From positions 1-43,925 of IMG/VR virus record IMGVR_UViG_3300044771_000011: a DNA stretch of 43,925 nucleotides; one strand, given 5' to 3'. The notes beneath the pieces were generated by a model. That model was not told where the DNA came from. It saw only the letters and a list, made by a program, of their open reading frames with translations, and made no database searches. The stretch's first letter is position 1, and each line of letters begins with the position of its first letter. This DNA comes from a virus. Below are positions 1-43,925 of the stretch, piece by piece. The position numbers and the translations under genes were made by a program.

Positions 1-127
1 GCAATGAGCAAAGCCGGTAAATCTAAAAAGTAACAAGCAACTATCAAATGGTAGTTGCTTTTCTTATACCTATTTTTAAGGAGGAATGACATATGCCAGA
101 CGAAATAACCGAATCGACACAGGATAA
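1..127. repeat. Terminal direct repeat, copy 1 (identical to 43799-43925)
   Basis: Base-by-base comparison: gcaatgagcaaagccgg...cgacacaggataa occurs at both contig ends. Consistent with a circular assembly overlap or terminal redundancy. Confidence 0.95.
35..65 (+). terminator. Rho-independent terminator (duplicate of 43833-43863 inside the terminal repeat)
   Basis: AAGCAACTA, 8-nt loop, TAGTTGCTT, then TTTTCTT. Confidence 0.6.
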
Positions 128-15179: not shown

Positions 15180-16331
15180 ATGACAACAAGATCAATTCAC
15201 CCAAGAACAGATGGAGAAGGAAGTATAGGAACTTCTGATAAAAAATTTGGTAACGGTTATTTTGATAATATTAATATTGAAACTATAGGTATTACAGGAA
15301 CATTAAATGAACACTTAGGCGCAAACGTAGCATCTGCAAGCACTATAAACCTTACAACCGCCACAGGAAATTTTCTGCACATTACAGGGACAACCGCTAT
15401 AACAGCCGTAACATTGGGTGCTGGTATGAGGCGAGAATTAATTTTTGATGGAATATTAACATTAACCCATCATGCAACTAATAATAACCTACCCGGTGTT
15501 GCCAATATCACTACGGCGGTAGGAGATAGGGCTAGTTATTATTCAGACGGTACAACGGTTTATTGTACTAAGTACGTGAAGGCAGATGGAACGCCAATTG
15601 CTTTACAGATTAGTAGCGGGGGAGAGATACTACAGTTAAAAATATTTAATAATGTTACTACACCAAACACCAAAATGGACATAACCGCAAATAATGTACC
15701 TTTATATGATACTAGTTATAATCAAAAGAAGTCTGGCGTAATTAGTTTAACCGCTGATTTAGGTGCAAGTGGCGCGAATGGACTTGATACTGGTAGTAAA
15801 GCAAATAGTACAGCTTACTTCCTATACGTAATCGGCAAAACCGATGGTACTATGGCAAGTTTATGGTCTCTATCAGCAACCGCCCCAACCATGCCAACAG
15901 ATTATATTTATAAAAGGCGTGTAAGTTGGAATAAGACAGACAGTAGCGGGAATTTAAATAGGATATTTCAGTATGGGCGCAAAGTTCAGTATGTTAATAT
16001 CGGTAGTGGATTACCACTAATATGTTCTGGATCTACGAGTAATGTAATTACGGCAACATCTATATCTAATTTTATACCTACCGCTACAGCAAGTAATATT
16101 GATTTACTGATAAGTGCTGCGCAACTTAATAATTATACTACGGTATCACCTAACAGTAGTTATGGTTCGTATGTTTCATATACAAACCCTCCTGCATTCA
16201 GTGTATGGAACACGAGTAGTGGACAAGCAGCATTAAAACTAAATTTCGTTATAGAATCTACTAATATTTACTATTCAGCAAATAGTGCAAACAGTTATGT
16301 TTTTTGTATGGGATGGGAGGAGAATTTATAG
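15180..16331 (+). CDS. Tail fibre / receptor-binding protein candidate
   Basis: 383 aa, S/T/N/G-rich and beta-rich. N-terminus HPRTDGEGSIGTSDKKFGNGYF is typical of fibre/spike proteins. Follows the first fibre gene. Confidence 0.5.
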   Translation: MTTRSIHPRTDGEGSIGTSDKKFGNGYFDNINIETIGITGTLNEHLGANVASASTINLTTATGNFLHITGTTAITAVTLGAGMRRELIFDGILTLTHHATNNNLPGVANITTAVGDRASYYSDGTTVYCTKYVKADGTPIALQISSGGEILQLKIFNNVTTPNTKMDITANNVPLYDTSYNQKKSGVISLTADLGASGANGLDTGSKANSTAYFLYVIGKTDGTMASLWSLSATAPTMPTDYIYKRRVSWNKTDSSGNLNRIFQYGRKVQYVNIGSGLPLICSGSTSNVITATSISNFIPTATASNIDLLISAAQLNNYTTVSPNSSYGSYVSYTNPPAFSVWNTSSGQAALKLNFVIESTNIYYSANSANSYVFCMGWEENL

Positions 16332-16673
16332 ATGTTTTGTTATTCAAATAATGGATATTCGATGAGAGCCGTAGATAATGATTATATTGCACAAACTGGA
16401 GAAGTATTATTTGCTGATTATGCTACTACTGAGCAAAAAAATACTGCCTTCCCTCTTTATAATAGTGGTATCCCAATTTTAACGAAAATGCAAAAAATAA
16501 CAGCATTGAATGCCGAATACAAAATTCTATTTGAAGCAGAAGCATTGAAAGAACCTTTATCATATCTTGCAGATGGTACAACAATAGAATCTAAAAGATT
16601 ATCATTACAGACAAATTATTTAACCTTACTTACTGAAAAAAATACAAAAAGGAGCGTGATTTTAAATGCCTAG
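16332..16673 (+). CDS. Hypothetical protein (possible fibre-associated or assembly protein)
   Basis: 113-aa ORF abutting the fibre stop codon, with GGAGGAG upstream. No motif recognised. Confidence 0.45.
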   Translation: MFCYSNNGYSMRAVDNDYIAQTGEVLFADYATTEQKNTAFPLYNSGIPILTKMQKITALNAEYKILFEAEALKEPLSYLADGTTIESKRLSLQTNYLTLLTEKNTKRSVILNA

Positions 16674-16824
16674 TGCTTATAGGTGCCCTGATTGCCAATA
16701 TTATCCCATGACTTGGGATTCAGATGGAAGTATTTCAGGATTGGGAGAACCTTGTTGGGTTTGCCTCGAAACGCAATGCGGGAATATAATCCCAGTTGAT
16801 GAAAATTATCAACCACCAACATAG
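16666..16824 (+). CDS. Small Cys-rich (CxxC...CxxC...C) zinc-ribbon-like protein
   Basis: 52-aa ORF MPSAYRCPDCQYYP...CWVCLETQCG. It is below the track cutoff and overlaps the previous stop codon by 8 nt. Confidence 0.35.
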   Translation: MPSAYRCPDCQYYPMTWDSDGSISGLGEPCWVCLETQCGNIIPVDENYQPPT

Positions 16825-16844
16825 TATTTATTTTACAAAAATCA

Positions 16845-17819: not shown

Positions 17820-18187
17820 GTAAATTCTTTAAAGGAACTGAATTTGCCTGCAATGGCCCAGAATGTGAAGGATTAATCAACGTAGGCAACGGTATTAGTC
17901 CTCGCTTAATGAATGTTCTGGACGCCATTAGAGAGCGTATAGGACAACCTATCTATATCAACTCTGGTTACAGATGCCCTGTGCATAATAAAGAAGTTGG
18001 AGGAGTTACTAATTCCCAACATGTTGACGGTACTGCAGCTGATTTAAATTATGACGGTATAGATGTTGATTACCTTGCGCAAGTAGCAGAAGAATGTGGT
18101 GCTGATGGTATAGGTAAATATTGGTCGCAAGGATTCGTGCATGTTGACGTGAGGGGTTATGCTGCAAGGTGGAGTGAAAATGATTAG
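17816..18187 (+). CDS. Endolysin, peptidase M15 family (single catalytic domain, no wall-binding domain)
   Basis: SGYRCPVHNKEVGGVTNSQHVDGTAADL and FVHVDVR match the zinc-binding H/D/H motifs of M15A/M15C D-Ala-D-Ala and L-Ala-D-Glu peptidases. 123 aa. Confidence 0.8.
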   Translation: MSKFFKGTEFACNGPECEGLINVGNGISPRLMNVLDAIRERIGQPIYINSGYRCPVHNKEVGGVTNSQHVDGTAADLNYDGIDVDYLAQVAEECGADGIGKYWSQGFVHVDVRGYAARWSEND

Positions 18188-18557
18188 TGAAGTGAGGGAA
18201 TATATAAATGCAAATAAGAAGAACATTATCATTATTTGTGTGTTGCTTATTGTTATTGTCGTTGCCTGGGATGTGTTCGGCAGCAAGTTATCAAATACAG
18301 GATCAGGAGCTGATACAGCTAGACAACAACTTAACACTGTTATCAATCAACAATCAGAATCTATTAATACAATTAAAACAGTCGAAACAGGACTTGGGAA
18401 TAGCATCAAGTCAGTTGGAACAATTGAAAGCACAGTTGATCACGCTACAGTTACAAACTCAAACAGCATTGCAACAGCAACAGACAGCGCAAGCATCATT
18501 GCAGACTGCCAACGCATCCTTAAATCAGTACGAGAAAGAGACAAAAGCAAAAATTAG
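18180..18557 (+). CDS. Type II membrane protein downstream of the endolysin (i-spanin-like candidate)
   Basis: AAGGTGGAG SD lies 5 nt before ATG 18180, and the ORF overlaps the endolysin stop. N-terminal TM segment NIIIICVLLIVIVVAWDVF. Third-position GC is about 26% by hand count, typical for this genome. Confidence 0.5.
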   Translation: MISEVREYINANKKNIIIICVLLIVIVVAWDVFGSKLSNTGSGADTARQQLNTVINQQSESINTIKTVETGLGNSIKSVGTIESTVDHATVTNSNSIATATDSASIIADCQRILKSVRERDKSKN

Positions 18558-18621
18558 ATCAGTTGCTTTGCAACGAGATATTGCTATTGTGGGAATAGTT
18601 GCAATGTTCTTTAGGAAATAA
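18208..18621 (+). CDS. Overprinted ORF in the +1 frame: signal-like N-terminus, coiled coil, C-terminal TM (spanin-like candidate)
   Basis: 137 codons open in an AT-rich genome. GAGGGA lies 9 nt upstream. N-terminus MQIRRTLSLFVCCLLLLSLPGMCSAAS, heptad Q/L-rich core, C-terminus IAIVGIVAMFFRK. Extends 64 nt beyond the overlapping ORF. Confidence 0.4.
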   Translation: MQIRRTLSLFVCCLLLLSLPGMCSAASYQIQDQELIQLDNNLTLLSINNQNLLIQLKQSKQDLGIASSQLEQLKAQLITLQLQTQTALQQQQTAQASLQTANASLNQYEKETKAKIRSVALQRDIAIVGIVAMFFRK

Positions 18622-18733
18622 TTTTTAAACCTCTCGAATTCGACGGGTTTAGATTTGCCACCGACATCAATGTCGGCGACAACCATCCGGGAATATAGGA
18701 CAGTTCAACCGTTCAGTTTTATTTAATAGTTCA

Positions 18734-18773
18734 AAAGCCGTCTGCCTTTAATTAGGTTGACGGCTTTTTTGTT
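18734..18773 (+). terminator. Rho-independent terminator closing the late (virion plus lysis) operon
   Basis: AAAGCCGTC, 16-nt loop, GACGGCTTT, then TTTTGTTT. Confidence 0.7.
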
Positions 18774-18831
18774 TAACTACTTAGTATATGCAATTAACTG
18801 ACAAATTATACTATCGTTTTAAAAATAATTA

Positions 18832-18976
18832 TGTTATAATAAATAAAACACCTAACAACTCTAGTAAAGTCGTTAGGCAAGTTTACCCTCGGTCAGGAGG
18901 GCTAGGTAATTAAGTTACCCGTATTGTAACATACAACCTCCTGCCGAGTCAATAATTTGGTAGGAGGTTTTTTATA
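18832..18976 (+). promoter_or_regulatory. Extended -10 promoter plus a roughly 130-nt structured leader with mutually exclusive terminator and antiterminator helices
   Basis: Promoter TGTTATAAT at 18832-18840. Hairpins at 18851-18877, 18886-18901 and 18905-18919. Terminator pairs 18935-18948 with 18956-18969, followed by a T-run. Alternative helix pairs 18888-18900 with 18937-18948. Confidence 0.5.
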
Positions 18977-19396
18977 TTGAAAGAAGTAAATGTATTTAAA
19001 AACAAGACTATGGTTGATACTAGGGATGATTTAAGGATAATTTATTTTTTAATCAAGAAAGATAAGGTTGTATATGTTGGTCAATCAAACGTTGGATTAT
19101 CTAGGATTTATCAACATGTGGTTGCAAATAAAAAGGATTTTGATTCGTTTAGTTATATTAAAGTTAATAATGATGAAGACTTAGACCTATTAGAAGCTGA
19201 TTACATTATAAAGTTTGACCCTATTTATAACCTTAAAATACACAGTAATAAATATTATAAATCATTAGATTCAATAAAGAAAATATTAAACATTGGCAAA
19301 AATGATTTAAATAAAATTATCAGACACAAAGAAATAAAGCCTGTGTTTTCTGGGGTATATGATATAAGAGATTTTCCTTGTGAGGTTGAATTATGA
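18977..19396 (+). CDS. GIY-YIG domain protein with a C-terminal HTH-like tail
   Basis: RIIYFLIKKDKVVYVGQSNVGLSRIYQH...LLEADYIIKFDPIYN keeps the Y, Y-x-G, R, E and N positions of GIY-YIG nucleases. TTG start lies 8 nt after AGGAGG. Confidence 0.5.
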   Translation: MKEVNVFKNKTMVDTRDDLRIIYFLIKKDKVVYVGQSNVGLSRIYQHVVANKKDFDSFSYIKVNNDEDLDLLEADYIIKFDPIYNLKIHSNKYYKSLDSIKKILNIGKNDLNKIIRHKEIKPVFSGVYDIRDFPCEVEL

Positions 19397-20199
19397 TTAA
19401 ACAAGGAAGTAAATTATTGTTAGACGAACAGCCATTAGTAGTATTGCCACAATTAGCAAAATTAATAGGGTTAAACGAAGCTATAATTGTTCAGCAAATT
19501 CATTATTGGAATGAAATAAATAAAAAAAATAACAATAATTTTAGAGATGGATATCATTGGACTTTTAATTCTTATCAACAATGGATAGAACAATTTCCTT
19601 TTTGGTCAGAAAAAACAATTAAAAGAACAATAACCGGATTAGAGAACATTGGAATAATAGTAAGTGGTAATTATAACAAGATGAAAATAGACAGAACAAA
19701 ATGGTATAGAATTGATGAGAAAATGCTTGAAAAGCTATGTAAAACACCAAAAGGTCAAAATGACCCGATCATAAGGTCAAGTTGTCCCGATCATAAGGTC
19801 AAGTTGTCCCCGCCAATACCAGAGACTAATTCAAAGATTAATTCAAAGAATAATATTAATGCGTCATCGCCAACGAATGACGGTTGTGGATATGTGGATA
19901 ACTTTACGGAGGATGGACAAATAGTATACGACTACTTTATTGGAAAATATTTTCTGACAATGGGAAGTCAACACCCATCTGTTAATCAAAGTACCGTTAA
20001 CAGCATTAACAAAATAATGGAAGATGAATATATAACCGATCCAGAATTTGATAATGAACTATCAATTGATATTAATGCAATGATAGATATGATTGATTGG
20101 TATTTTGATAGTAATAATCCTTTGTACGGTGACAGAAGAATATACCACTTTCTAAGTCCAATGATATTGAAGAATCTGTATAATAAAGTTGCACGTTGA
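19393..20199 (+). CDS. Replication initiator / replisome-organiser-like winged-helix protein carrying its own iterons
   Basis: The N-terminus LVVLPQLAKLIGLNEAIIVQQIHYW...FPFWSEKTIKRTITGLENIGII...RTKWYRID is typical of Firmicute phage/plasmid initiators. Tandem 22-bp repeats lie inside the gene. Confidence 0.5.
   Translation: MIKQGSKLLLDEQPLVVLPQLAKLIGLNEAIIVQQIHYWNEINKKNNNNFRDGYHWTFNSYQQWIEQFPFWSEKTIKRTITGLENIGIIVSGNYNKMKIDRTKWYRIDEKMLEKLCKTPKGQNDPIIRSSCPDHKVKLSPPIPETNSKINSKNNINASSPTNDGCGYVDNFTEDGQIVYDYFIGKYFLTMGSQHPSVNQSTVNSINKIMEDEYITDPEFDNELSIDINAMIDMIDWYFDSNNPLYGDRRIYHFLSPMILKNLYNKVAR
19764..19807 (+). repeat. Two perfect tandem 22-bp direct repeats (iterons, candidate origin), plus a degenerate copy at 19742-19763
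   Basis: CCCGATCATAAGGTCAAGTTGT occurs twice in tandem. The 22-bp period is not a multiple of 3, so the same DNA is read in two frames (DPIIRSS / PDHKVKL). Confidence 0.8.
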
Positions 20200-20299
20200 C
20201 AACAACAATCCAACAATATAAAGGGGTACTAAAAAAGGGTTCTATGATTAAGACGCACCATTCTTGCGTAATATTATTACTAATAAGGAGAGTTGTACC

Positions 20300-20602
20300 A
20301 TGAAAAAATATTACGGACTAAGCCAATCAGCAAAACAGAAGGCGTTAGATTTTATTGATTTGTTACAAGAAAAATTTCCAAGAACATTTCCGAAAAAACC
20401 AGACTCAAAAGTACCATTGATGATTGGAATTCATGAACAATTATTGCTAATTAAAGACGAATTAGGCGTTGAAGAAAAGACAATTATAAATGCTATGAAG
20501 TTATGGTGTAAAGGTGCTAGATATTATACTGTTTTATCTGTTGCGGGTGTTCCAAGGTTAAATTTAAATGGGGAACAGGTAGGTTTAGTTACAGAAAAAT
20601 AA
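20300..20602 (+). CDS. ProQ/FinO-domain RNA-binding protein
   Basis: LQEKFPRTFP...PLMIGIHEQL...AMKLWCKGARYYTVL...GVPRLNLNGEQVGLVTE aligns by eye with the E. coli ProQ N-terminal FinO domain (ERFPHCF...PLKIGIFQDL...ALRLYTSSWRYL...RVDLDGNPCGEL). AAGGAG SD. Confidence 0.65.
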   Translation: MKKYYGLSQSAKQKALDFIDLLQEKFPRTFPKKPDSKVPLMIGIHEQLLLIKDELGVEEKTIINAMKLWCKGARYYTVLSVAGVPRLNLNGEQVGLVTEK

Positions 20603-20806
20603 ACGATTGGACATAGATTAAAATATTCACTACCAATAATTGATAGAAAAATAGAAGATTTATATTTATCCGTTAGAGCCTACAATCTTTTGAAGCGTGA
20701 AGGGATTAAATTTGAGTCAGACATTAAAAATAGAATTGACTCTCTTGGTGGTATTATGGGCATGGGAAAGAAAAGTCTAGAAGAAATAAAATCAGCATTA
20801 AAATAA
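20603..20806 (+). other. RNA polymerase alpha-subunit C-terminal-domain-like (helix-hairpin-helix) coding segment, in frame behind the TAA of the ProQ/FinO gene, with no start codon or SD of its own
   Basis: Translation IEDLYLSVRAYNLLKREGIKFESDIKNRIDSLGGIMGMGKKSLEEIKSALK compares with E. coli alpha-CTD [51 protein letters not shown]. The first in-frame canonical start is TTG 20690, inside the domain. Confidence 0.6.
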
Positions 20807-20811
20807 CTTTC

Positions 20812-20840
20812 TCCTGCTCACCCCGAGCAGGATTTTTTTT
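20812..20840 (+). terminator. Rho-independent terminator
   Basis: TCCTGCTC, 5-nt loop, GAGCAGGA, then T8. Confidence 0.75.
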
Positions 20841-20890
20841 ATTTCTGTCCAATATAACAACAACGACAACAATTAAAAAAGGATGATATT

Positions 20891-21334
20891 ATGAAATCAT
20901 TACCTAAAATCGCTGCCGAATTGTCAGTACCTATAGCAACGCTCAGATATCGCCTACAAGCGTTCAATGAGTTTATTACATACTCTGTTAACGGAAAGAA
21001 CGGAAAAGAGTACAGTGAGGATGTAGAGTGCATTATAAAGGAAATCAATTCGTACTGTGACCAGAAGAAATCTACAGAAGAGATAATATCATTATTAGCA
21101 ACAAAATATGCCCGTGATATAGAAATTATAGAGGACACAACAGAAACAACAACAATACAACAACATGATTCTACTGAACTAATAAGATTGAATAACAACT
21201 TAGAAAAGATGATTGAACGACTTGATCGGCAACAAGAACTTCAACAACAGATTAATGAGATGAGACTGGCAATATCAGAAATAAGTAGAGTTGGCAGGCA
21301 TAAGAAGAACTGGTTTAGCTGGTTGTGGGGATAG
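20891..21334 (+). CDS. HTH (MerR-like) DNA-binding protein with a C-terminal coiled coil
   Basis: N-terminus LPKIAAELSVPIATLRYRLQAF, then the heptad-rich LIRLNNNLEKMIERLDRQQELQQQINEM. Confidence 0.45.
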   Translation: MKSLPKIAAELSVPIATLRYRLQAFNEFITYSVNGKNGKEYSEDVECIIKEINSYCDQKKSTEEIISLLATKYARDIEIIEDTTETTTIQQHDSTELIRLNNNLEKMIERLDRQQELQQQINEMRLAISEISRVGRHKKNWFSWLWG

Positions 21335-21353
21335 TTGTCCCCCTTTATTTTTT
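21327..21353 (+). terminator. Rho-independent terminator overlapping the stop codon of the previous gene
   Basis: GGGGA, 6-nt loop, TCCCC, then CTTTATTTTTT. Confidence 0.55.
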
Positions 21354-21355
21354 AC

Positions 21356-21385
21356 TTGACCGTCATGACTGGGTCATGATACAAT
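21356..21385 (+). promoter_or_regulatory. Promoter with a perfect inverted-repeat operator in its spacer
   Basis: TTGACC, 18 nt, TACAAT. The spacer contains TCATGAC-tgg-GTCATGA (21363-21379). The downstream gene encodes an RHH protein. Confidence 0.6.
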
Positions 21386-21404
21386 ACAAATAAGGGGTGA
21401 TACT

Positions 21405-21560
21405 ATGGAAGAAAAAGATACGGACATTGTCCCTATCCAAATTAAGTTAGAACGTAGATTAAGGAAAAAATTTAAGGACAAATGTAAGGACAAAGATATT
21501 CATTATGCTCAATGGGTTAGGGGTAAAATTAAAGAATATGTGGAGGATGATAAACAATGA
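21405..21560 (+). CDS. Ribbon-helix-helix (CopG/Arc-like) regulator
   Basis: 51 aa. VPIQIKLERRLRKKFKDKCKDKDIHYAQWVRGKIKEYV fits a beta-strand plus two helices. AAGGGGTGA SD. Confidence 0.55.
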   Translation: MEEKDTDIVPIQIKLERRLRKKFKDKCKDKDIHYAQWVRGKIKEYVEDDKQ

Positions 21561-25115: not shown

Positions 25116-25146
25116 AGGGTGGTTAAATGACCACCCTTTCTTTTTG
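25114..25146 (+). terminator. Rho-independent terminator ending the early leftward block
   Basis: AAAGGGTGG, 8-nt loop, CCACCCTTT, then CTTTTT. Confidence 0.7.
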
Positions 25147-25452
25147 GGGGCTCACCAGCAAAACGCGCAAAACGTACGTTAAGGATTAATCTCTTCTTAA
25201 CGTGCTATAATTTCCGAATTCTATCGTGACCCCTAATAGGACAATTGTCTAATTATTCGCAATTAAGCAGGAATATGTTTACATTACGACTAAATAGTCA
25301 GTATATGTTACGTATCGGAGGGTGATTCTATTGCAGGTTTAATTTTTATGCCCGTTTTTAAAGGGGTTTTTATTTTTGCCTTTAATCGTTGTTGCAAATG
25401 TGATATAATAAACCAAACATATGTTCGATAAAAATACATAAGGGGATGCAAA

Positions 25453-25578
25453 ATGGTAGATATTAGTTATGAGATAGTTGATTTCAAGGGCGAAGTGGAA
25501 TGGGTGGAACTTGATAATGAAAGTTATGCGGTTGACCTGCTATATGTAGACGAATTTTTAAATTCGTTTGGATGTTGA
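25453..25578 (+). CDS. Small acidic ORF (41 aa) in the noncoding island
   Basis: AAGGGGA lies 6 nt before the ATG. Preceded by TGATATAAT at about 25401-25409. Coding status is uncertain. Confidence 0.3.
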   Translation: MVDISYEIVDFKGEVEWVELDNESYAVDLLYVDEFLNSFGC

Positions 25579-25580
25579 CA

Positions 25581-25609
25581 TTTACAATTTGAATAATATT
25601 AGTTATAAT
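25581..25609 (+). promoter_or_regulatory. Near-consensus promoter with no ORF downstream
   Basis: TTTACA, 17 nt, TATAAT. A TTGACA also lies 6 nt further upstream. Confidence 0.6.
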
Positions 25610-25615
25610 GGGCAT

Positions 25616-25858
25616 ATAAATAAATAACCGCTCCTGTTACTAGCAGGAACGGTCATAAGTGAATACTAGAGGTTTTTGGCTACTTCATGGATGATCTTGT
25701 AAATAACCCACAAAGCAACACTTGAAACTGTTAGTCTGAAGCGGTTGGTTTCAAAGTGCAATTGCGTTCACCTCCTGTATTCAGTTTGAGAGAGATCATA
25801 CCTCTCCCAAACGCTATTATAGCAGAAGCCGTTAGATAATTCTAACGGCTTTTTGTTT
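25616..25858 (+). ncRNA. Candidate ~240-nt structured noncoding RNA (promoter-to-terminator unit)
   Basis: No ORF longer than 12 codons. Hairpins ACCGCTCCTG/CAGGAACGGT, CACTTGAAAC/GTTTCAAAGTG and GAGAG/CTCTC. Exposed CACCTCCTG (anti-SD-like). Terminator AAGCCGTTAG/CTAACGGCTT followed by TTTTGTTTT. Confidence 0.45.
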
Positions 25859-25882
25859 TGTATATAATGATAACAAAGATGA

Positions 25883-25910
25883 AGACCAGCTAAACTGCTG
25901 GTCTTTTTTA
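25883..25910. terminator. Hairpin terminator shared by convergent transcription (the T-run overlaps the repressor stop codon)
   Basis: AGACCAGC, 6-nt loop, GCTGGTCT, then TTTTTTATTTTTT. Confidence 0.6.
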
Positions 25911-26264
25911 TTTTTTAGTATATAAATCTATTAGTTTTTCTAATGTTTCTGGAGAAATCCCGCTTTTTCTTGCCTTTTCACTTAAAAGTATATACGGATC
26001 ACCGCTAGGATTAAAATTAGTTTCTTTGATTTTACCGTCTGCATCTCTAACATCTTCCGCAAAGTATGTTTTTGCTAGTAACGATTCTGTTGTGACATTG
26101 AAATAATCAGATATTTTTTTCAATGTATTAGCGCGAGGGATGGAACCATTCTTCCAATACGTTGCATTTGAACAGCTTAAGCCAATATCTGAAATAAGTT
26201 TAGTTATTGAGATCCCTTTGTTTTGGCATAATTTTTCTACTTGCTTAAAAAACATAAATATCAT
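25908..26264 (-). CDS. CI-like repressor, XRE-family HTH, without a peptidase S24 domain
   Basis: KLCQNKGISITKLISDIGLSCSNATYWKNGSIPRANTLKKISDYFNVTTESLL is a typical HTH_3 sequence. Divergent from a Cro-like gene. Only 118 aa. An alternative start lies at 26255. Confidence 0.75.
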   Translation of the reverse strand: MIFMFFKQVEKLCQNKGISITKLISDIGLSCSNATYWKNGSIPRANTLKKISDYFNVTTESLLAKTYFAEDVRDADGKIKETNFNPSGDPYILLSEKARKSGISPETLEKLIDLYTKK

Positions 26265-26275
26265 CCTTTTATTTT

Positions 26276-26304
26276 TATATAAACTGAATAAAACTCATTG
26301 ACAA
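26276..26304 (-). promoter_or_regulatory. Promoter for the repressor gene
   Basis: On the - strand: TTGTCA, 17 nt, TATATA. Its -35 overlaps the -35 of the opposing promoter. Confidence 0.5.
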
Positions 26305-26326
26305 ACTGAAGGCAACCGAATATAAT
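26298..26326 (+). promoter_or_regulatory. Consensus early rightward promoter
   Basis: TTGACA, 17 nt, TATAAT (a perfect consensus), followed by a ~175-nt leader that ends in the palindrome TTTTCATAA-aaaa-TTATGAAAA (26469-26490) abutting the SD. Confidence 0.75.
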
Positions 26327-26502: not shown

Positions 26503-26685
26503 ATGGAAAAATATTTTACTTGTGATGATGTTGCATCAAAATATGGAGTAAAAAAAATTACTGTATGGTCTTGGATTAGGGAAAAGAAACTTAACGCCAT
26601 TCAGACAGGTAGAAATTATTGTATTCGCCCAGAAGATTTGAAAGAGTTTGAAAATAATAGAACAACAATTAAAAAGGAAGTGTAA
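26503..26685 (+). CDS. Cro-position regulator, excisionase/MerR-type HTH (HTH_17-like)
   Basis: YFTCDDVASKYGVKKITVWSWIREKKLNAIQTGRNYCIRPEDL. AAAGGAGGA SD. First gene of the rightward operon. Confidence 0.6.
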   Translation: MEKYFTCDDVASKYGVKKITVWSWIREKKLNAIQTGRNYCIRPEDLKEFENNRTTIKKEV

Positions 26686-26687
26686 AA

Positions 26688-27467
26688 ATGAGTAATTTAT
26701 CAACAATCAAAAATACAAGATGCTTTATTGATGACAATGGAACGGCACAACTTAATTTAGAAGATGTTGCTAGAGGATTAGGATTTACTGAAATAGCGGG
26801 GAGCGGTAACGAAACAGTTAGATGGAGAACAATCAAAGGATATTTAGAAGGGTTTGGATTCATCGCAACAAGTTGCGATACGTATTCTCCACAAGTGGGG
26901 AAAGAAACATTCATCCCAGAAAACATCTTCTACCGTCTAGCTATGAAAGCCAAAAATGAAACGGCTGAAAAGTTCCAAGCAATTGTAGCTGATGAAATTC
27001 TTCCAGCAATCAGAAAAACAGGTACATATTCAGCATCTCCGCAAATACCACAAACATTACCAGAAGCCCTAAGAGCCTACGCAAATGAAGTTGAAAATCA
27101 CATCAAGGCAAAGGCGCTGATTGAAGAAAATAAACCATTAGTATTATTCGCTAATTCTGTTGCTGGTAGTGATAATTTAAGCTCTGTAAATCAATTATCT
27201 AAAATACTGAATCAAAATGGTGTTGATATAGGAGAAAAACGGTTATTTGTATGGCTGCGTGAACATGGTTACTTGTGTAAATGTGGTGATGATTATAACC
27301 TACCAACTCAAAGATCAATGGACTTAAACATAATGGAGATTAAAAAATCATCAATCATTACAGGCAAAGGCGACACATTAGTAACTCGCACGACAAAAAT
27401 TACAGGTAAAGGGTGTATCTACTTCGTTAATAAATTCCTAAACGTTGGGAAATTGGAGGTTGTCTAG
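26688..27467 (+). CDS. Antirepressor (Bro-N domain plus KilAC/ANT C-terminal domain)
   Basis: N-terminus VARGLGFTE...ENIFYRLAMKAKNETAEKFQAIVADEILPAIRKTGTY. C-terminal part ALRAYANEVENH...NQLSKILNQNGVDIGEKRLFVWLREHGYL. Confidence 0.8.
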   Translation: MSNLSTIKNTRCFIDDNGTAQLNLEDVARGLGFTEIAGSGNETVRWRTIKGYLEGFGFIATSCDTYSPQVGKETFIPENIFYRLAMKAKNETAEKFQAIVADEILPAIRKTGTYSASPQIPQTLPEALRAYANEVENHIKAKALIEENKPLVLFANSVAGSDNLSSVNQLSKILNQNGVDIGEKRLFVWLREHGYLCKCGDDYNLPTQRSMDLNIMEIKKSSIITGKGDTLVTRTTKITGKGCIYFVNKFLNVGKLEVV

Positions 27468-30545: not shown

Positions 30546-31361
30546 TTGGCGGAAATTAAATGGATAAAAATAACCACGGATGTGTTCGATGACGAAAAGA
30601 TTGATTTTATCAGTAGTTTACCAGAAGGTGATTCTCTAATTGTAGTATGGGTTAGGTTGCTTACAATGGCTGGTAAAAATAATGCTGGTGGCTTCATCTT
30701 TCTGACTGAGAACATTCCATACAGTGAAGATATGCTATCTCATAAATTTAAAAAGCCATTGAATGTAATAAAGTTAGCCCTCAAAACATTCAAAGAACTT
30801 AACATGATTGAGTTTGATGAATGTGGAAGATTGATTATAGCTAATTGGGAAAAACACCAAAATGTTGATGCTCTTGAAAAAATAAGGGAGAAAACAAGGG
30901 TGAGAGTAGCTAAATATCGTGAGTCGAAATTGTTACAATGTAACGTTACAGTAACAGACGATGTAACGCCAAGTAACGCACTAGATAAAGATATAGATAA
31001 AGATAAAGAGAAAGAACTTTCTAGTCATAAATTGAAATTTACTGACGAGCATATAAAACTAGCTAACTATCTCAAGGAATTAATCTTATTGAATAATACA
31101 GATGCAAGAGTTCCTGTCAATATTAATAAGTGGGCAAATGATATACGGCTAATGTGCGAAATTGATAAACGTTATCCTGACAATATTGAAATAATTATTG
31201 AATGGTGTCAAAAAGATAGTTTTTGGAAAACAAATATTTTAAGCACAGACAAACTTCGCAAACAATTTGACCAATTAACTTTAAAAATGAAACAAGCAGA
31301 CCAGCAGATTAAACTATTTAATAGCAAACAACCCATAAGGGAGGAATACCCCGAACTATGA
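30546..31361 (+). CDS. Phage replisome organiser (N-terminal organiser domain plus DnaD-like C-terminal domain)
   Basis: EIKWIKITTDVFDDEKIDFISSLPEGDSLIVVWVRLLTMAGKNN matches the replisome-organiser N-terminal domain. TTG start. Upstream of the helicase gene. Confidence 0.7.
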   Translation: MAEIKWIKITTDVFDDEKIDFISSLPEGDSLIVVWVRLLTMAGKNNAGGFIFLTENIPYSEDMLSHKFKKPLNVIKLALKTFKELNMIEFDECGRLIIANWEKHQNVDALEKIREKTRVRVAKYRESKLLQCNVTVTDDVTPSNALDKDIDKDKEKELSSHKLKFTDEHIKLANYLKELILLNNTDARVPVNINKWANDIRLMCEIDKRYPDNIEIIIEWCQKDSFWKTNILSTDKLRKQFDQLTLKMKQADQQIKLFNSKQPIREEYPEL

Positions 31362-32647
31362 TTGACTTGAATATGGAATCTCAAACTATAGCAGGAATGC
31401 TGAATAATCAAGAATGTCTAGATATTGGAGTTGCTGATTTAAAAGAAGAATGGATATTTGACTCTTTCTATCGGCAAGTGTTTAAAACTATTAAGGGGAT
31501 GTATTTAGACAGTAAGCCAGTAACGGCAAGTAGCGTTTATAAAGAAATGGGAGAGATTACGAAACAACGTGGTACAAGTTGGCTACTACTGAAAGAAGCT
31601 TTCTTTAGGAAATCAGATTTAGAATATAATATCCAAAAATTAAATGAGTTATACAAAACTAGAGAACTTGTTAAACTGTCTGAAAACATCATTCGTAGGG
31701 CTGATCAAAAAGAAAATGTTAGCGAACTACTAAAAGATATGGAGAATAGCCTTTATTCTCTCACAGTTAGCGCAGGACAAGAGAAAATAATTAGTCCTAA
31801 AGAATGTGCTAATCGGATGTTAAACACACTAGAAAAGCGAATGGAGAAAAAACAAGATAAGGCAATCAGTACCTCTTATGAAATGTTGAATTATGCAATT
31901 AACGGCGGTTTTAGACCGGAGCAAGGTCAGTTAGTGATAATTGCCGCTAAGACAGGCAAGGGGAAAACTGCTTATGCTATGAACTTGATGAGGGATATAG
32001 CAGTAGTGCAAAAACAAGAATCATTATATATAAACACTGAAATGTCAGATGAGCAAATGGATTGCAGATGGATGACGATAGCAACTCCTGATATTGATAT
32101 TACACATAGTAAAATTGCAACAGGTGAATTAACGGATGCAGAACAAACAAAAGTAATGGGTTCGATGGAAAAAATATATCAATCTGGGTTTAACTGCATT
32201 AATGTGCCTGACCTTAATATGACGAAATTAATATCTATTGCTAAACGGTTTAAATCCCAAAATAAAATGAAGGTTATGGTTGTTGACTACATAGGACGAA
32301 TGGATACAACAGATGCAAAAATGCCTGAACATTTAGTATTAAAGAACATAGCTAAAAAAATGAAAACTCTTGCACAGGAATTGAAAATAACAATTATAAT
32401 GCTGGCACAATTAAACGATGACGAAAAGTTAGAGGGTGCTAAAGCAATGAAAAATGAAACTGATTTATTCGCATACTTGAGAGAGGCGCAAGGCAATGAA
32501 CTACTAGATATTGCGCCATATAATTACTTTTTAATAATTGATAAAAATAGAGATGGTAAAAGCATGAAATTAAGATTAAAGTTCGTTGGTGACAAATTAA
32601 CATTTGTTGGTGAGAAATATTCAGAAGTAGTAGCGAGGAGGAATTAA
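31358..32647 (+). CDS. Replicative DNA helicase, DnaB type
   Basis: Walker A IIAAKTGKGKTAYAMN and Walker B MVVDYIGRM. 429 aa. ATGA overlap with the organiser gene. Confidence 0.8.
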   Translation: MIDLNMESQTIAGMLNNQECLDIGVADLKEEWIFDSFYRQVFKTIKGMYLDSKPVTASSVYKEMGEITKQRGTSWLLLKEAFFRKSDLEYNIQKLNELYKTRELVKLSENIIRRADQKENVSELLKDMENSLYSLTVSAGQEKIISPKECANRMLNTLEKRMEKKQDKAISTSYEMLNYAINGGFRPEQGQLVIIAAKTGKGKTAYAMNLMRDIAVVQKQESLYINTEMSDEQMDCRWMTIATPDIDITHSKIATGELTDAEQTKVMGSMEKIYQSGFNCINVPDLNMTKLISIAKRFKSQNKMKVMVVDYIGRMDTTDAKMPEHLVLKNIAKKMKTLAQELKITIIMLAQLNDDEKLEGAKAMKNETDLFAYLREAQGNELLDIAPYNYFLIIDKNRDGKSMKLRLKFVGDKLTFVGEKYSEVVARRN

Positions 32648-37493: not shown

Positions 37494-37898
37494 ATGGATA
37501 AGAGTACCAAAAGACCTGATATGATAGGTAATAAGTTTGGAGTAGGGAATAAAGGTGGAAGACCTAGGAAATTTCAAGATCCTGCTGCTTTCGATAGAAT
37601 GGTTGATGAGTTCTTTAATATGTGCGAAGAAACAGGGAAGAAGCCTACAATTGAACATTTAGCTGTTTATATGGGTACTAATGATGAGACGTTACATGAT
37701 TACTCTGAAATAAAGGAGTATTCTGGATCTTATAAGAAAGCAAAAGAGAGATGCTTGAACTGGCTCATATCAAATGGTCTAGAAGCACGTAACCCTGCAA
37801 TGCACATATTCCTAGCAAAGAATAACTACGGCTATAAAGATAAACATGAAATTGATAATAATCTATCCGGAGGCGTTACTATCAAATGGGAAGAATAG
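37494..37898 (+). CDS. terS: Terminase small subunit (gp3-type DNA-packaging protein)
   Basis: NKGGRPRKFQDPAAFDRMVDEFFNMCEETGKKPTIEHLAVYMG...ETLHDY is typical of the small-terminase HTH family. GAGGTGA SD. Confidence 0.65.
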   Translation: MDKSTKRPDMIGNKFGVGNKGGRPRKFQDPAAFDRMVDEFFNMCEETGKKPTIEHLAVYMGTNDETLHDYSEIKEYSGSYKKAKERCLNWLISNGLEARNPAMHIFLAKNNYGYKDKHEIDNNLSGGVTIKWEE

Positions 37899-38629: not shown

Positions 38630-38650
38630 TTTAGCAAAAGAGGTGATTTG

Positions 38651-39151
38651 TTGAGTAAAACTGGTCGTATTGTTGATGATGATGGTGTTATTATTGGTTC
38701 AATTAATGAAGGTGATAAGATTATTCGTAAAGCCAGTATTGAGTATTTACAAGATACCGAGATATGGAAGATTGAGCATTTTTATAAAGGGAATATAAGC
38801 GAGATAAGAAAACAACTTGAAGACCTCTCTATATATGAGAAGTCTTTTTTATTTTGCATTGCTACTTATGTTGGTTACGAGGATTGCTGTATTAAACATG
38901 ATAATGGTGTTTGTTTTGGGTTTGATGATCTTGTTAAACTAACGCGTATGAGTAGGGAAAAGACACTTAATACAATTAATAGTCTTATTAGATCAGATGT
39001 TATTTACAAAGGTAAGAATAGCAAAGGATTACAGTATTTCGTTAATCCTTGGTTATTTTGTAAAGGTAATAGAATTAATACAGTATTGAAAACGATGTTT
39101 AAAAACTACCGTATAAAGGTTAAAAACGAAATGAAATGGAGCGAATTATAA
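38651..39151 (+). CDS. RepL-like (Firmicute plasmid replication protein family) winged-helix protein
   Basis: The layout and motifs IVDDDGVIIG..., LSIYEKSFLFCIATYV, TRMSREKTLNTINSLIRSDVIYK and YFVNPWLFCKGN resemble pSN2/pE194-type RepL. TTG start 5 nt after AGAGGTGA. Confidence 0.45.
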   Translation: MSKTGRIVDDDGVIIGSINEGDKIIRKASIEYLQDTEIWKIEHFYKGNISEIRKQLEDLSIYEKSFLFCIATYVGYEDCCIKHDNGVCFGFDDLVKLTRMSREKTLNTINSLIRSDVIYKGKNSKGLQYFVNPWLFCKGNRINTVLKTMFKNYRIKVKNEMKWSEL

Positions 39152-39536: not shown

Positions 39537-40928
39537 ATGGCAACAACAACAGTGCTAACAATCCCCTACAAGCCACGATTCCCCATGACAGACATACATG
39601 AGCAACTAGAATCGCACAGGTTCAACGTATTAGTAGCACATAGACGTATGGGTAAGTCAGTAGGAACTATTAATCATGCAATAAAGATGTCCCTTAAAAA
39701 CAAACTATGGCAACCTAGATATGCTTATATAGCACCCTATAGGAATCAGGCTAAATTGATTATCTGGGATTACCTAAAGAAGTATACAGGCGGCATACCA
39801 AAGGTTAAGTTCAATGAGTCTGAGTTGTATGCTGAATTCCTTGATAGAAGGATTTATTTGTTTGGTGCTGACAATCCTGATGCCATTCGTGGTGCTTACT
39901 GGGACGGTGTTGTACTTGATGAATACGCGCAGATTAAACCGGAAGTATGGGGCGAGATTATAATGCCTGCTTTGCTTGATAGACAGGGGTGGGCTGTGTT
40001 CAGTGGTACTCCAAAAGGACAGAATCACTTCTATGATGCAACACTTACAGCGCAGAAGTTAATGAGTGAGGGAGATCCTAATTGGTGGTGTGGGATATAC
40101 CGAGCTGATGAAACCGGTGTTATGTCTGATACTGATCTAGAATTGGCAAGGAAAATAACTTCTGAAAATCAATATCGACAAGAGTTCTTATGCGATTTCA
40201 CCGCTTCTTCTGAAAATATATTAATTACTATTGATCTTGTTACTGATGCTGCTAGAAAAGAAATGAGACCAGAACAAATCTTAGGAGCTCCTAGGGTATT
40301 AGGAATTGATGTTGCTAGGTACGGAGGAGATAAATCAGTAATCTTTAGACGACAAGGATTGCAAGCTTTCAACCCTAAGATATTTGATAAAATTGACAAC
40401 ATGACATTTGCTGGGCGTATTGCTAATGAAATACAAGAATTTAAACCTGATGCTGTGTTTATTGACGCTGGTCGTGGCGAGGGTGTTATTGATAGATTAA
40501 GACAACTAGGATACAGTGTAACAGAGGTAAACTTTGGTGGTACTGCCTTAAATCATAACCACTACGAGAATAGGCGTTCTGAGATGTGGGATCTTCTAAA
40601 ACAATGGCTAGAGTCTGGTGGATGTATACCTAACGAATCACAACTTAAAAGCGAGTTGGTAACACCTTCGTATTCTTTAAATAAAAGAGATAAATTTCAG
40701 TTAGAGTCAAAAGATGATATTAAGAAAAGGTTAGGAAATTCGCCAGATTTAGCGGATGCCCTAGCCTTAACTTTTGCCATGCCAGTTGCATCTAGTGCAG
40801 ATGTTGGTAGTTATTCAAACAAACTGCACTTTGCTAATGCGGGATATAACCCCATTCAAAGAAACAATAATTCAAGACATTTTGCCAATTCTTCATACAA
40901 CCCAATTCAAAGTAAAAGGAGGAGATAA
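39537..40928 (+). CDS. terL: Terminase large subunit
   Basis: Walker A VAHRRMGKSVGT and Walker B VVLDEYAQ. C-terminal nuclease-region acidic residues IDVARYGGD and FIDAGRGEG. 463 aa. Confidence 0.85.
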   Translation: MATTTVLTIPYKPRFPMTDIHEQLESHRFNVLVAHRRMGKSVGTINHAIKMSLKNKLWQPRYAYIAPYRNQAKLIIWDYLKKYTGGIPKVKFNESELYAEFLDRRIYLFGADNPDAIRGAYWDGVVLDEYAQIKPEVWGEIIMPALLDRQGWAVFSGTPKGQNHFYDATLTAQKLMSEGDPNWWCGIYRADETGVMSDTDLELARKITSENQYRQEFLCDFTASSENILITIDLVTDAARKEMRPEQILGAPRVLGIDVARYGGDKSVIFRRQGLQAFNPKIFDKIDNMTFAGRIANEIQEFKPDAVFIDAGRGEGVIDRLRQLGYSVTEVNFGGTALNHNHYENRRSEMWDLLKQWLESGGCIPNESQLKSELVTPSYSLNKRDKFQLESKDDIKKRLGNSPDLADALALTFAMPVASSADVGSYSNKLHFANAGYNPIQRNNNSRHFANSSYNPIQSKRRR

Positions 40929-43702: not shown

Positions 43703-43831
43703 ATGCCATTAAAATCAGGTTCAAGTAAATCTGTAATAGCTTCTAATATCAAAAAGGAAATGCACTCTGGTAAAAGCCAAGCACAAAGTGTAGCAATCGC
43801 AATGAGCAAAGCCGGTAAATCTAAAAAGTAA
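43703..43831 (+). CDS. Small basic protein (42 aa) with a QSVAIAMSKAG motif
   Basis: GGAAGGTGAG SD. Peptide MPLKSGSSKSVIASNIKKEMHSGKSQAQSVAIAMSKAGKSKK. Its 3-prime end lies in the terminal repeat. Confidence 0.5.
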   Translation: MPLKSGSSKSVIASNIKKEMHSGKSQAQSVAIAMSKAGKSKK

Positions 43832-43925
43832 CAAGCAACTATCAAATGGTAGTTGCTTTTCTTATACCTATTTTTAAGGAGGAATGACATATGCCAGACG
43901 AAATAACCGAATCGACACAGGATAA
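43799..43925. repeat. Terminal direct repeat, copy 2 (identical to 1-127)
   Basis: Exact 127-nt match to the start of the window. Confidence 0.95.
43833..43863 (+). terminator. Rho-independent terminator before the scaffold/capsid genes
   Basis: AAGCAACTA, 8-nt loop, TAGTTGCTT, then TTTTCTT. Confidence 0.6.

Follow-up and report, generated by a model that had tools for sequence, protein, structure and literature searches.

The genome analysed here is a metagenomic virus sequence of 43,925 nucleotides (IMG/VR record IMGVR_UViG_3300044771_000011, positions 1 to 43,925), referred to below as the window, by which the whole stretch at its full length is meant. By its sequence the window is a complete, circular 43.8-kb podovirus of the epsilon15/BPP-1-like type, and we consider it probable, though well short of certain, that it is a phage-plasmid, in which the segment at 18.73-20.84 kb is a plasmid-maintenance replicon that has replaced the integration module. 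Its prophage would accordingly persist in an extrachromosomal state. Groups of phage-plasmids such as P1, N15, SSU5 and others have been described (PMC7969092), and metagenomic candidates have been reported as well (PMC4490671). A first-pass annotation made from the sequence letters had already suggested this lifestyle, on the grounds of a plasmid-type replicon and the lack of an integrase. What survives of that proposal is the replicon at the attP/int site, to which a conserved attenuator and the presence of ParA in relatives can now be added; a RepL-like gene and a total of three initiators, both part of the original argument, have to be given up, and the assignments of a MerR-like and a GIY-YIG protein are weak.

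The circular form of the genome is seen in two data sets. An exact direct repeat of 127 bp is found at the ends of the window (1-127 and 43799-43925), which reduces the 43,925-bp window to a circle of 43,798 bp, and the same circle appears in the Logan assembly of run SRR35361782 as a contig of 43,828 bp, that is, the unit plus the k-1 overlap. The two showed no differences in the 20.8 kb compared, and host flanks are absent from both circular assemblies. The phage gene set is complete, with virion, packaging and lysis genes. It comprises a T7-type portal (PF12236), a protease/scaffold, a GP7 capsid protein, Bbp16 and Bbp19, both tail tubular proteins (A, and B with 33% identity to those of epsilon15, phiV10 and SPN1S), a tail-fibre adaptor, internal virion proteins including one that is T7 gp14-like, both terminase subunits, an M15 endolysin and a spanin-like pair. 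Megablast of the 18-22 kb region against 50,697 deposited phage genomes found no near-identical DNA, and neither Rfam families nor tRNAs were found in the window.

The genome encodes a temperate switch, as had been claimed: an XRE repressor, divergent from a TTGACA-17-TATAAT promoter, an HTH_17 Cro-like gene and a Bro-N+ANT antirepressor were all matched. The search for integration and partition genes covered all open reading frames (ORFs) of at least 170 aa by Pfam and/or PHROG scans, and the 64 remaining ORFs, on either strand and as short as about 45 aa, by Pfam. Each of the large ORFs had either a non-recombinase assignment or no match, and the smaller ones yielded 13 Pfam families, none of which was a recombinase, transposase, protelomerase, ParA/ParB or toxin-antitoxin family. 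Six-frame tblastn gave nothing significant for any of its queries, which were the integrase of epsilon15, a tyrosine recombinase from Bacillus and three ParA proteins, and dif-like sites, sought with consensus sequences, did not rise above the shuffled background. The statement that no integrase, recombinase, transposase or protelomerase is present withstood this profile scan of essentially every ORF, a check of the kind that had been proposed, and no partition protein was found either. The only large ORF left unassigned (15180-16331, 383 aa) follows the tail-fibre adaptor and matches solely phrog_17105, a family of unknown function. In annotated epsilon15 the attP sites and int directly follow Rz/Rz1, which is where the unit lies here, so that the argument from the usual att/int position holds.

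The genome also has a second replication module, of phage type, whose replisome organiser and DnaB helicase genes at 30.5-32.6 kb were matched in Pfam and PHROG, as annotated, and are preceded by further early genes (Sipho_Gp157, exonuclease and SSB). A supposed RepL-like gene at 38.6 kb did not stand up: ORF 38648-39151 has no match to RepL (PF05732) or to any relevant Pfam or PHROG family, and it sits in the packaging region between the small (TerS) and large (TerL) terminase genes. The initiator-type genes are, for this reason, two and not three.

The unit itself is bounded by terminators, in agreement with the first-pass annotation, by a hairpin at 18733-18768 with its U-run on the left and by one at 21327-21342 with a T-run on the right; an additional internal terminator lies at 20812-20832. 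Counterparts of the left hairpin follow the lysis genes in three relatives (L003, L004 and L167). The order within the unit is leader, 139-aa ORF, rep, proQ, a TAA codon, a segment resembling the C-terminal domain of the RNA polymerase alpha subunit (alpha-CTD), terminator, 147-aa gene and terminator, and all genes are oriented as the lytic genes. The promoter and the regulatory leader that had been ascribed to the unit were both recovered, as a predicted extended -10 element and a structured leader that are conserved in relatives.

The leader, of about 130 nt, has a predicted folding energy of -45.9 kcal/mol (z -4.9 versus shuffled sequences) and forms three small stem-loops (SL1 to SL3) followed by a 15-bp hairpin. 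This hairpin (18935-18969) includes the GGAGG Shine-Dalgarno (SD) sequence of the first ORF and ends 7 nt ahead of its TTG start. In an alternative, antiterminator fold, 18888-18900, in the SL2 region, can pair with 18937-18948, the 5' arm of the hairpin. On the opposite strand an antisense RNA of about 78 nt is predicted, made of two stem-loops, the second of which is an intrinsic terminator (18879-18849, 13-bp hairpin), and the -35 box of its promoter is located in the loop of the hairpin at 18935-18969.

The same arrangement of leader and antisense RNA is found upstream of rep in L003, L004, L167 and L317, in surroundings that have diverged. All five elements keep the TGnTATAAT of the sense strand along with both boxes (-35 and -10) of the antisense promoter, and the antisense equivalents measure 74-78 nt in L003, L004 and L167. 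RNAalifold on the five leaders recovered SL1, SL2 and the terminal hairpin; a long-range pairing of the two -10 boxes that it also produced was rejected as an artefact, the sense -10 not being transcribed. In the terminator fold 81.7% of the alignment cells are paired, versus 32-56% in slid controls, with nine compensatory pairs, and none of 500 shuffles reached this level. For the antiterminator helix the figures are 80.4% versus 36-62%, with three compensatory pairs, as in the change from CGG/CCG to CAG/CTG in L004. Leaders deprived of the 3' arm of the hairpin, which mimic a nascent transcript, folded into the antiterminator in five of five cases. In L167 no start codon follows the hairpin and a different rep begins about 140 nt further on, which favours termination, rather than pure masking of a ribosome-binding site (RBS), as the conserved output. 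The Rep encoded there is unrelated (phrog_9432) and yet stands behind the same leader, so the leader appears as a portable control cassette. Taken together, the leader and the antisense RNA are predicted to be an attenuator of the pT181/pSK41 type conserved in five related elements, in which the antisense RNA would be transcribed and would act by attenuation.

The initiator gene, which begins within an ATGA that also holds the stop codon of the 139-aa ORF, was confirmed as a relative of replication initiators, and its internal repeats were confirmed as well. Residues 6-156 of Rep match phrog_6493 ('DnaD-like helicase loader') at 2e-50, and phrog_11233 and phrog_428 ('replication initiation protein') are also matched, always within residues 6-170. 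Full-length relatives, with 44-53% identity, form a coherent two-domain family. The closest one that carries a name ('Replication protein' in UniRef) is encoded on a 16.4-kb circular plasmid of Bacillus weihaiensis, of which it is the only initiator candidate. The AlphaFold2 model shows an N-terminal winged helix (about residues 10-118) joined by a disordered linker (120-166, pLDDT about 30) to a helical C-terminal domain modelled with confidence (170-268), and the top Foldseek matches in the PDB are the N-terminal domains of RepA_N plasmid initiators (4pql, 5kbj and 4pt7). A profile of Rep against PDB sequences gave nothing significant. The plasmid-type character of replication thus lies in the organisation of the unit, and curated Pfam models of plasmid Rep proteins found no match.

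Three 22-bp direct repeats, CAAAAGGTCAAAATGACCCGAT, CATAAGGTCAAGTTGTCCCGAT and CATAAGGTCAAGTTGTCCCCGC, lie at 19748-19813, where rep encodes the linker, a region modelled with pLDDT below 50. Since 22 cannot be divided by three, the copies are read in different frames and are repeats of the DNA, not of the peptide. In L003, L004 and L318 the orthologous rep genes have two or three repeats at the equivalent place, which share the TCAAAATG core between dyad arms and are spaced by 22, 33 or 44 bp. This region would function as the origin, and the TAATTCAAAGA tandem directly downstream is a possible unwinding element.

Downstream of rep lies the gene for the ProQ/FinO-domain protein, whose assignment was borne out by PF04352, with a score of 66.8 bits (cutoff 27) and E=2e-18. 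An alternative upstream TTG at 20264 would give a form of 112 aa. The protein is 51% identical to the ProQ proteins of L004 and L167, where proQ likewise follows rep; among plasmid proteins the nearest are encoded by megaplasmids of Burkholderiaceae (43-51%), and no similar protein turned up by tblastn in the 50,697 deposited phage genomes. The alpha-CTD-like segment was right as to its domain, which matches PF03118 in full (E=3.4e-14, 52.7 bits against 23.8), and lacks a start codon: it continues the ProQ reading frame beyond the TAA at 20600-20602, and no ATG, GTG or TTG is found upstream of the domain. Among 1.84 billion representative proteins, uninterrupted proteins of 171-173 aa, P0284 (53%) and P0282 (50%), match the ProQ-stop-alphaCTD stretch end to end, and the gene of the window is on this account a ProQ-alphaCTD fusion cut by a single TAA. 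From the sequence, the codon would be either a recent nonsense mutation, which is considered because ProQ-only versions exist in L004 and L167, or else a read-through site. To our knowledge this combination of domains is undescribed. One speculative role of the alpha-CTD in such fusions would be to hold the RNA chaperone on DNA or on the polymerase during transcription.

Proteins of this family are known to take part in plasmid copy control: Inc is made more stable by FopA, which also helps it to pair with repZ, a stem-loop of the repR leader is bound by PcnR, and FinO acts on RepX (PMC9977716, PMC8053102, PMC8136791). Intrinsic terminator hairpins are given as binding targets of ProQ/FinO proteins in two further sources (PMC9674577, PMC12001967). 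An action of ProQ on the antisense RNA or on the leader is a reasonable proposal here, since the predicted antisense RNA ends in a 13-bp terminator hairpin, the kind of structure that FinO-domain proteins bind.

Relatives fill the same site in different ways. Portal searches brought to light an uncultured lineage of some size, with numerous contigs between 39 and 46 kb; the gene order of the window is collinear with relatives of 40-44 kb, its gene map has no gap, and the organiser and DnaB module is retained in relatives. At the site, L003 (42.5 kb) has the leader, the same 139-aa gene, a Rep (48%), a ParA (AAA_31, 1e-35) and a 98-aa ORF, while L317 has the leader, Rep, ParA and a 106-aa ORF. 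In L004 and L005, with portals 92% identical, the leader is directly followed by Rep and ProQ, and in L167 (41.7 kb) the same leader precedes the unrelated Rep, of 350 aa (phrog_9432 'replication protein', 1.4e-33), and ProQ. Finally, L287 (43.5 kb, portal 84%) has an ORF-free stretch, then a ParA of 218 aa and a 102-aa ORF. The site, being filled by Rep with ParA, by another Rep with ProQ or by ParA alone, behaves as a slot for plasmid maintenance. In the fetched parts of the relatives, which cover them incompletely and include some novel ORFs that were not scanned, no ORF of at least 150 aa resembled a recombinase. Scans of IMG/VR and JGI metagenomes anchored on Rep returned mostly matches to its N-domain in Bacillota phages that are not members of the lineage, and the contigs of other homologues of the lysis protein end just after the lysis genes.

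The site of L287 deserves a separate description. At 15700-16830 a post-lysis promoter and a hairpin, GGGACATAACGTTAAACGTTAATGTCC then TTTTTATATTG, are followed by about 500 nt free of ORFs and then by ParA. No Rep protein was found at the site and no Rfam match in the ORF-free stretch, and the site might hold a replicon that is based on RNA or of a kind not yet recognised. A hairpin of the same type also precedes Rep in L318.

Several lines of evidence support the view of the window as a phage-plasmid: the predicted, conserved attenuator before rep is a copy-number device typical of plasmids; epsilon15 has attP and int at this very site; ParA adjoins the orthologous Rep in L003 and L317 or occupies the same site in L287; Rep types have been exchanged behind the same leader; and the assembly is circular and devoid of host flanks in two data sets. 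Several points weigh against it. The window has no ParA, ParB or ParM and no toxin-antitoxin genes, and partition or toxin-antitoxin genes are carried by most low-copy phage-plasmids. The two assemblies possibly come from one sample, and terminally redundant or cos virion DNA would equally be expected to assemble as a circle. No lysogen has been seen, and distant relatives (portal 40-52%) occur in contigs of 250-470 kb, which implies that integration exists in the wider lineage. As for the initiator, its N-domain is about 50% identical to those of ordinary integrating Staphylococcus and Bacillus siphoviruses, and, judged by sequence, this domain alone is phage-type, the protein by itself not being diagnostic of a plasmid. 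The RepA_N matches in Foldseek have E-values of 0.03-0.2 and TM-scores of 0.46-0.51 (by target length), and generic winged helix-turn-helix (HTH) regulators score alike; Rep is matched neither by Pfam RepA_N (PF06970) nor, at E<=0.01, by any other Pfam family. Lambda and SPP1 likewise have their origin within the gene of the initiator, and the covariation comes from five sequences only, with the structure derived from one of them.

Part of these facts could be read in another way, namely that the unit is a second, early or alternative origin with its initiator, serving lytic or switch-phase replication, and that the antisense RNA only times the supply of Rep. The Rep N-domain is indeed the one that ordinary temperate siphoviruses have as 'DnaD-like helicase loader / replication initiation', lambda O is a classical case of an origin within the gene of its initiator, the unit is co-oriented with the lytic genes, and the window lacks par and toxin-antitoxin genes. 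We nevertheless regard this explanation as unlikely, given that a complete organiser and DnaB module is already there and is retained in relatives, and that the post-lysis unit is swapped, for another Rep or for ParA and a small ORF, between phages that share 84-92% portal identity. A ParA beside the orthologous Rep would contribute nothing to lytic replication, attenuators that work by a counter-transcript serve to set copy number, and the unit is insulated by terminators at the position of epsilon15 attP/int.

It might also be thought that the unit is selfish cargo, a small plasmid or satellite-type replicon cassette that inserted into the phage or recombined with it and does not determine its lifestyle, the phage being effectively virulent, pseudolysogenic or integrating by an unrecognised route. 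The mosaic nature of the site fits such an origin: the 139-aa gene is 88% identical where Rep is 48%, Rep types are exchanged, the nearest ProQ relatives are in Burkholderiaceae megaplasmids and those of Rep in Bacillaceae, and the ProQ-alphaCTD gene carries a stop codon. Yet the position of the cassette, its leader and its flanking terminators are conserved in at least five elements, a repressor/antirepressor switch with no integrase is hard to explain in the absence of another means of prophage inheritance, the fetched parts of the relatives likewise have no recombinase-like ORF, and no dif-like site was found, so that we hold this possibility to be about as unlikely as the last. Less credible still is an assembly artefact or an incomplete genome, whereby the integrase would have been lost by mis-assembly or chimerism and the circle would be spurious. 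The window is a metagenomic contig in which the terminal repeat is the only sign of circularity, but the independent Logan assembly returned the same 43.8-kb circle, identical wherever compared, and collinearity with the 40-44 kb relatives over a gap-free gene map speaks against any loss.

If the window is a phage-plasmid, its maintenance could be envisaged as follows. Rep would bind the three 22-bp iterons within its own gene and open the adjacent A+T-rich repeats, and its C-terminal domain would recruit the host replication proteins. The supply of Rep, and hence the copy number, would be set by the convergent antisense RNA of about 78 nt. When this RNA is absent, the nascent leader would adopt the antiterminator fold, with 18888-18900 paired to 18937-18948. 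Pairing of the antisense RNA with SL1/SL2 would free the hairpin arm, and the 15-bp hairpin at 18935-18969 would then form, causing transcription termination and/or masking of the RBS just upstream of the first ORF. ProQ/FinO would probably bind either the hairpin that terminates the antisense RNA or one of the stem-loops in the leader, so that the RNA is stabilised or the pairing is sped up, an effect that would amount to negative feedback, as exerted by FopA, FinO and PcnR on plasmids. The organiser-DnaB module would be reserved for lytic replication, in a division of labour like that of P1.

The element resembles phage-plasmids in that a temperate phage genome has plasmid-type replication (with partition in relatives) instead of an integrase, and P1 in particular in its separate modules for maintenance and for lytic replication. 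It differs from the known ones in its epsilon15/BPP-1-like podoviral virion module and in a window that has neither par nor toxin-antitoxin genes. Copy control in P1 operates by iteron handcuffing, unlike the antisense attenuation with ProQ/FinO that is predicted here. The likeness to lambda O, SPP1 G38P and lambda-dv consists in iterons in the linker-coding part of the gene, an A+T-rich neighbour and a homologous N-domain; unlike in lambda O and SPP1 G38P, the operon lacks a helicase loader and a helicase, is under antisense control, is insulated by terminators and stands at the int position.

Among plasmids, pSK41 offers close parallels. Its origin is inside rep, it has an antisense RNA of 83-87 nt and an RBS-containing, terminator-like stem just before the start, and the initiators of this type have an N-terminal winged helix, a dispensable central linker carrying the origin Rep boxes and a C-terminal domain for host interaction (PMC5703833). 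The three-part Rep, the predicted origin in the linker, a predicted two-stem-loop antisense RNA of about 80 nt and the RBS stem are thus shared with the pSK41-type RepA_N theta replicons of Bacillota. The differences are three 22-bp iterons in place of four Rep boxes, relatives annotated as phage 'DnaD-like helicase loader', and a hairpin with a terminator-like U-run, RNAI of pSK41 acting on translation only. Like pT181 and pIP501/pAMbeta1, the element is predicted to have a rep leader whose antiterminator and terminator folds exclude each other, an antisense RNA complementary to the 5' partner of the antiterminator and an SD-containing terminator stem immediately before the start (PMC5703833); unlike in pT181 and pIP501, the initiator is neither Rep_trans nor PriCT_1, a CopR-like repressor was not identified and the replicon is phage-borne. 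A small, element-encoded FinO protein beside a replicon whose initiator is under the control of a structured leader and of a cis-antisense RNA ending in an intrinsic terminator is also known from FopA/Inc-repZ (IncI1), PcnR/repR (IncI2), FinO/FinP and FinO/RepX (PMC9977716, PMC8053102, PMC8136791). The FopA, PcnR and FinO systems belong to proteobacterial conjugative plasmids and rely on translational coupling or a pseudoknot, whereas attenuation is predicted here, and in the present case proQ is inside the rep operon and represents a ProQ-alphaCTD fusion cut short.

Each ingredient has precedents, be it the phage-plasmid, the replicon under antisense control or copy control with the help of a FinO protein; the novelty lies in their being combined in a podoviral lineage, in the architecture of exchangeable cassettes and in the ProQ-alphaCTD fusion. 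Phage-plasmids are increasingly seen as bridges between phages and plasmids, the known groups being mostly from cultured Enterobacteria, with few from Bacillota. If the reading is true, an uncultured podoviral lineage has exchanged its integration module for a plug-in maintenance slot, which would be a natural example of a change in phage lifestyle by a module swap at one site, and a compact RNA circuit of leader, 78-nt antisense RNA and ProQ/FinO would extend the biology of the FinO domain from conjugative plasmids to phages. The finding also points to a family of ProQ-alphaCTD fusions. A wider claim, which we put forward only tentatively and hold to be doubtful as a whole, is that a lineage-wide maintenance slot replaced attP/int, composed of the attenuator cassette, two unrelated Rep types and either ParA or ProQ/FinO; that this would be the first phage replicon with FinO-domain copy control via a counter-transcript; and that the ProQ-alphaCTD proteins would be an undescribed family. 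The coordinates of the main features are collected in Table 1.

Table 1. Features of the window and their coordinates (the last row refers to the relative L004).
Feature	Position	Strand	Basis or remark
Left-boundary intrinsic terminator ending the lysis operon	18733..18778	+	hairpin 18733-18768 + U-run; -20.9 kcal/mol, z -6.4
Extended -10 TGTTATAAT of the rep operon, predicted	18832..18840	+	TGnTATAAT invariant in five aligned leaders
Predicted antisense (counter-transcript) RNA of about 78 nt, 18916 to 18839	18839..18916	-	-25.8 kcal/mol, z -5.0
Structured leader of the rep operon	18847..18976	+	SL1 18851-18877, SL2 18886-18901, SL3 18905-18919
Predicted antisense promoter TTGACT, 18-nt spacer, TG-n-TACAAT	18923..18952	-	10/12 with TG
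Terminator-like 15-bp hairpin + U-run (predicted attenuator, SD-sequestering stem)	18935..18969	+	compensatory changes
139-aa ORF, weakly GIY-YIG-like	18977..19396	+	sub-threshold matches; TTG start
Rep, 268 aa, initiator	19393..20199	+	phrog_6493, phrog_11233, phrog_428; AlphaFold model
Three 22-bp iterons, core GGTCAAAATGACC, predicted origin	19748..19813	.	direct repeats in linker-coding part of rep
A+T-rich tandem TAATTCAAAGA x2	19827..19849	.	directly downstream of iterons; read from sequence
ProQ/FinO-domain protein, 100 aa	20300..20602	+	ATG with AAGGAG RBS; PF04352
RNA polymerase alpha-CTD-like segment, 67 codons	20603..20806	+	PF03118, domain 20603-20803
Intrinsic terminator ending the rep-proQ operon	20812..20840	+	hairpin 20812-20832
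147-aa protein, putative N-terminal HTH + coiled coil	20891..21334	+	homologues in L167 (34%) and L004 (24%)
Right-boundary terminator	21327..21353	+	hairpin 21327-21342 + T-run
XRE-family repressor	25908..26264	-	Pfam, PHROG
Early rightward promoter, perfect consensus TTGACA-17-TATAAT	26298..26326	+	
Cro/Xis-like HTH_17 gene	26503-26685	+	Pfam, PHROG
Bro-N/ANT antirepressor	26688-27467	+	Pfam, PHROG
Second, phage-type replication module: replisome organiser (Phage_rep_org_N) + DnaB helicase	30546..32647	+	Pfam, PHROG
Small terminase (TerS)	37494-37898		GP3_package
Large terminase (TerL)	39537-40928		
Pentapeptide-repeat / Gad2-family genes of L004, possible cargo	16037-16663 and 19908-20447		

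The clues to the host are in conflict, pointing variously to Bacillota, to a diderm and to Burkholderiaceae. Strong AGGAGG SD sites, TTG starts, promoters with TGn extended -10 elements and the Rep relatives in Bacillaceae point toward Bacillota; endolysins with no wall-binding domain and the spanin-like pair, toward a diderm host; and the nearest ProQ relatives, toward Burkholderiaceae. Searches of GTDB genomes anchored on the lysis protein returned nothing, those with the portal profile gave distant matches only (47% in an Oscillospiraceae metagenome-assembled genome (MAG), 40% in a Bacillota MAG and about 30% in Desulfovibrio and others), and no isolate genome carrying the element was found in GTDB. 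The spanin-like pair itself consists of two ORFs (18159-18557 and 18208-18621) of about 135 aa each, which overlap almost totally in different frames and are unusual in their equal size; one member has an N-terminal transmembrane segment and the other a signal-peptide-like start, and both frames are open in L003, L004, L167 and L287.

Two further genes of the unit require some comment. The 139-aa ORF had been called a GIY-YIG protein, and the resemblance is weak, PF01541 being matched at E=0.003 (18.2 bits against a cutoff of 22.6) over residues 22-62 only, with an additional match to the phrog_1111 endonuclease at 1e-4. It is 88% identical between the window and L003 (9585-10004), where the adjacent Rep is only 48% identical, and it is missing from L004, in which rep comes directly after the leader. 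On these grounds it looks like a mobile, homing-type insertion between leader and rep that borrows the SD sequence and the TTG start of the leader. For the 147-aa protein the MerR-like label found no support, a weak MerR_1 match being seen only in the homologue of L004, which is about 24% identical, and a marginal match to PriC (24.9 bits) was discarded as coiled-coil noise. This gene, up to 21.35 kb, may belong to the replicon.

Just beyond the unit, at 21356-21385, lies a strong promoter (TTGACC-18-TACAAT) with a palindromic operator in its spacer (GTCATGAC..GTCATGA), which drives a ribbon-helix-helix (RHH)-like ORF of 51 aa (region 21356-21560) and a run of small genes. The ORF may encode a regulator of the CopG/omega type. 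RHH-like small ORFs also come after the maintenance genes of L287 (17944-18135) and L003 (46 aa, with a weak NikA-like match). Pentapeptide-repeat proteins are encoded just after the antirepressor in L003 (16108-16791) and L004, and a Gad2-family gene is present in L004; these genes, which the window lacks, may be anti-defence or defence cargo. An ORF-poor region of 0.8 kb (25116-25907) separates the leftward-converging early genes from the repressor. It has no Rfam match, contains five terminator-like hairpins on both strands and a near-consensus promoter (25581-25609, 11/12), and may encode small RNAs, and a 41-aa ORF within it (25453-25578) is conserved in L003.

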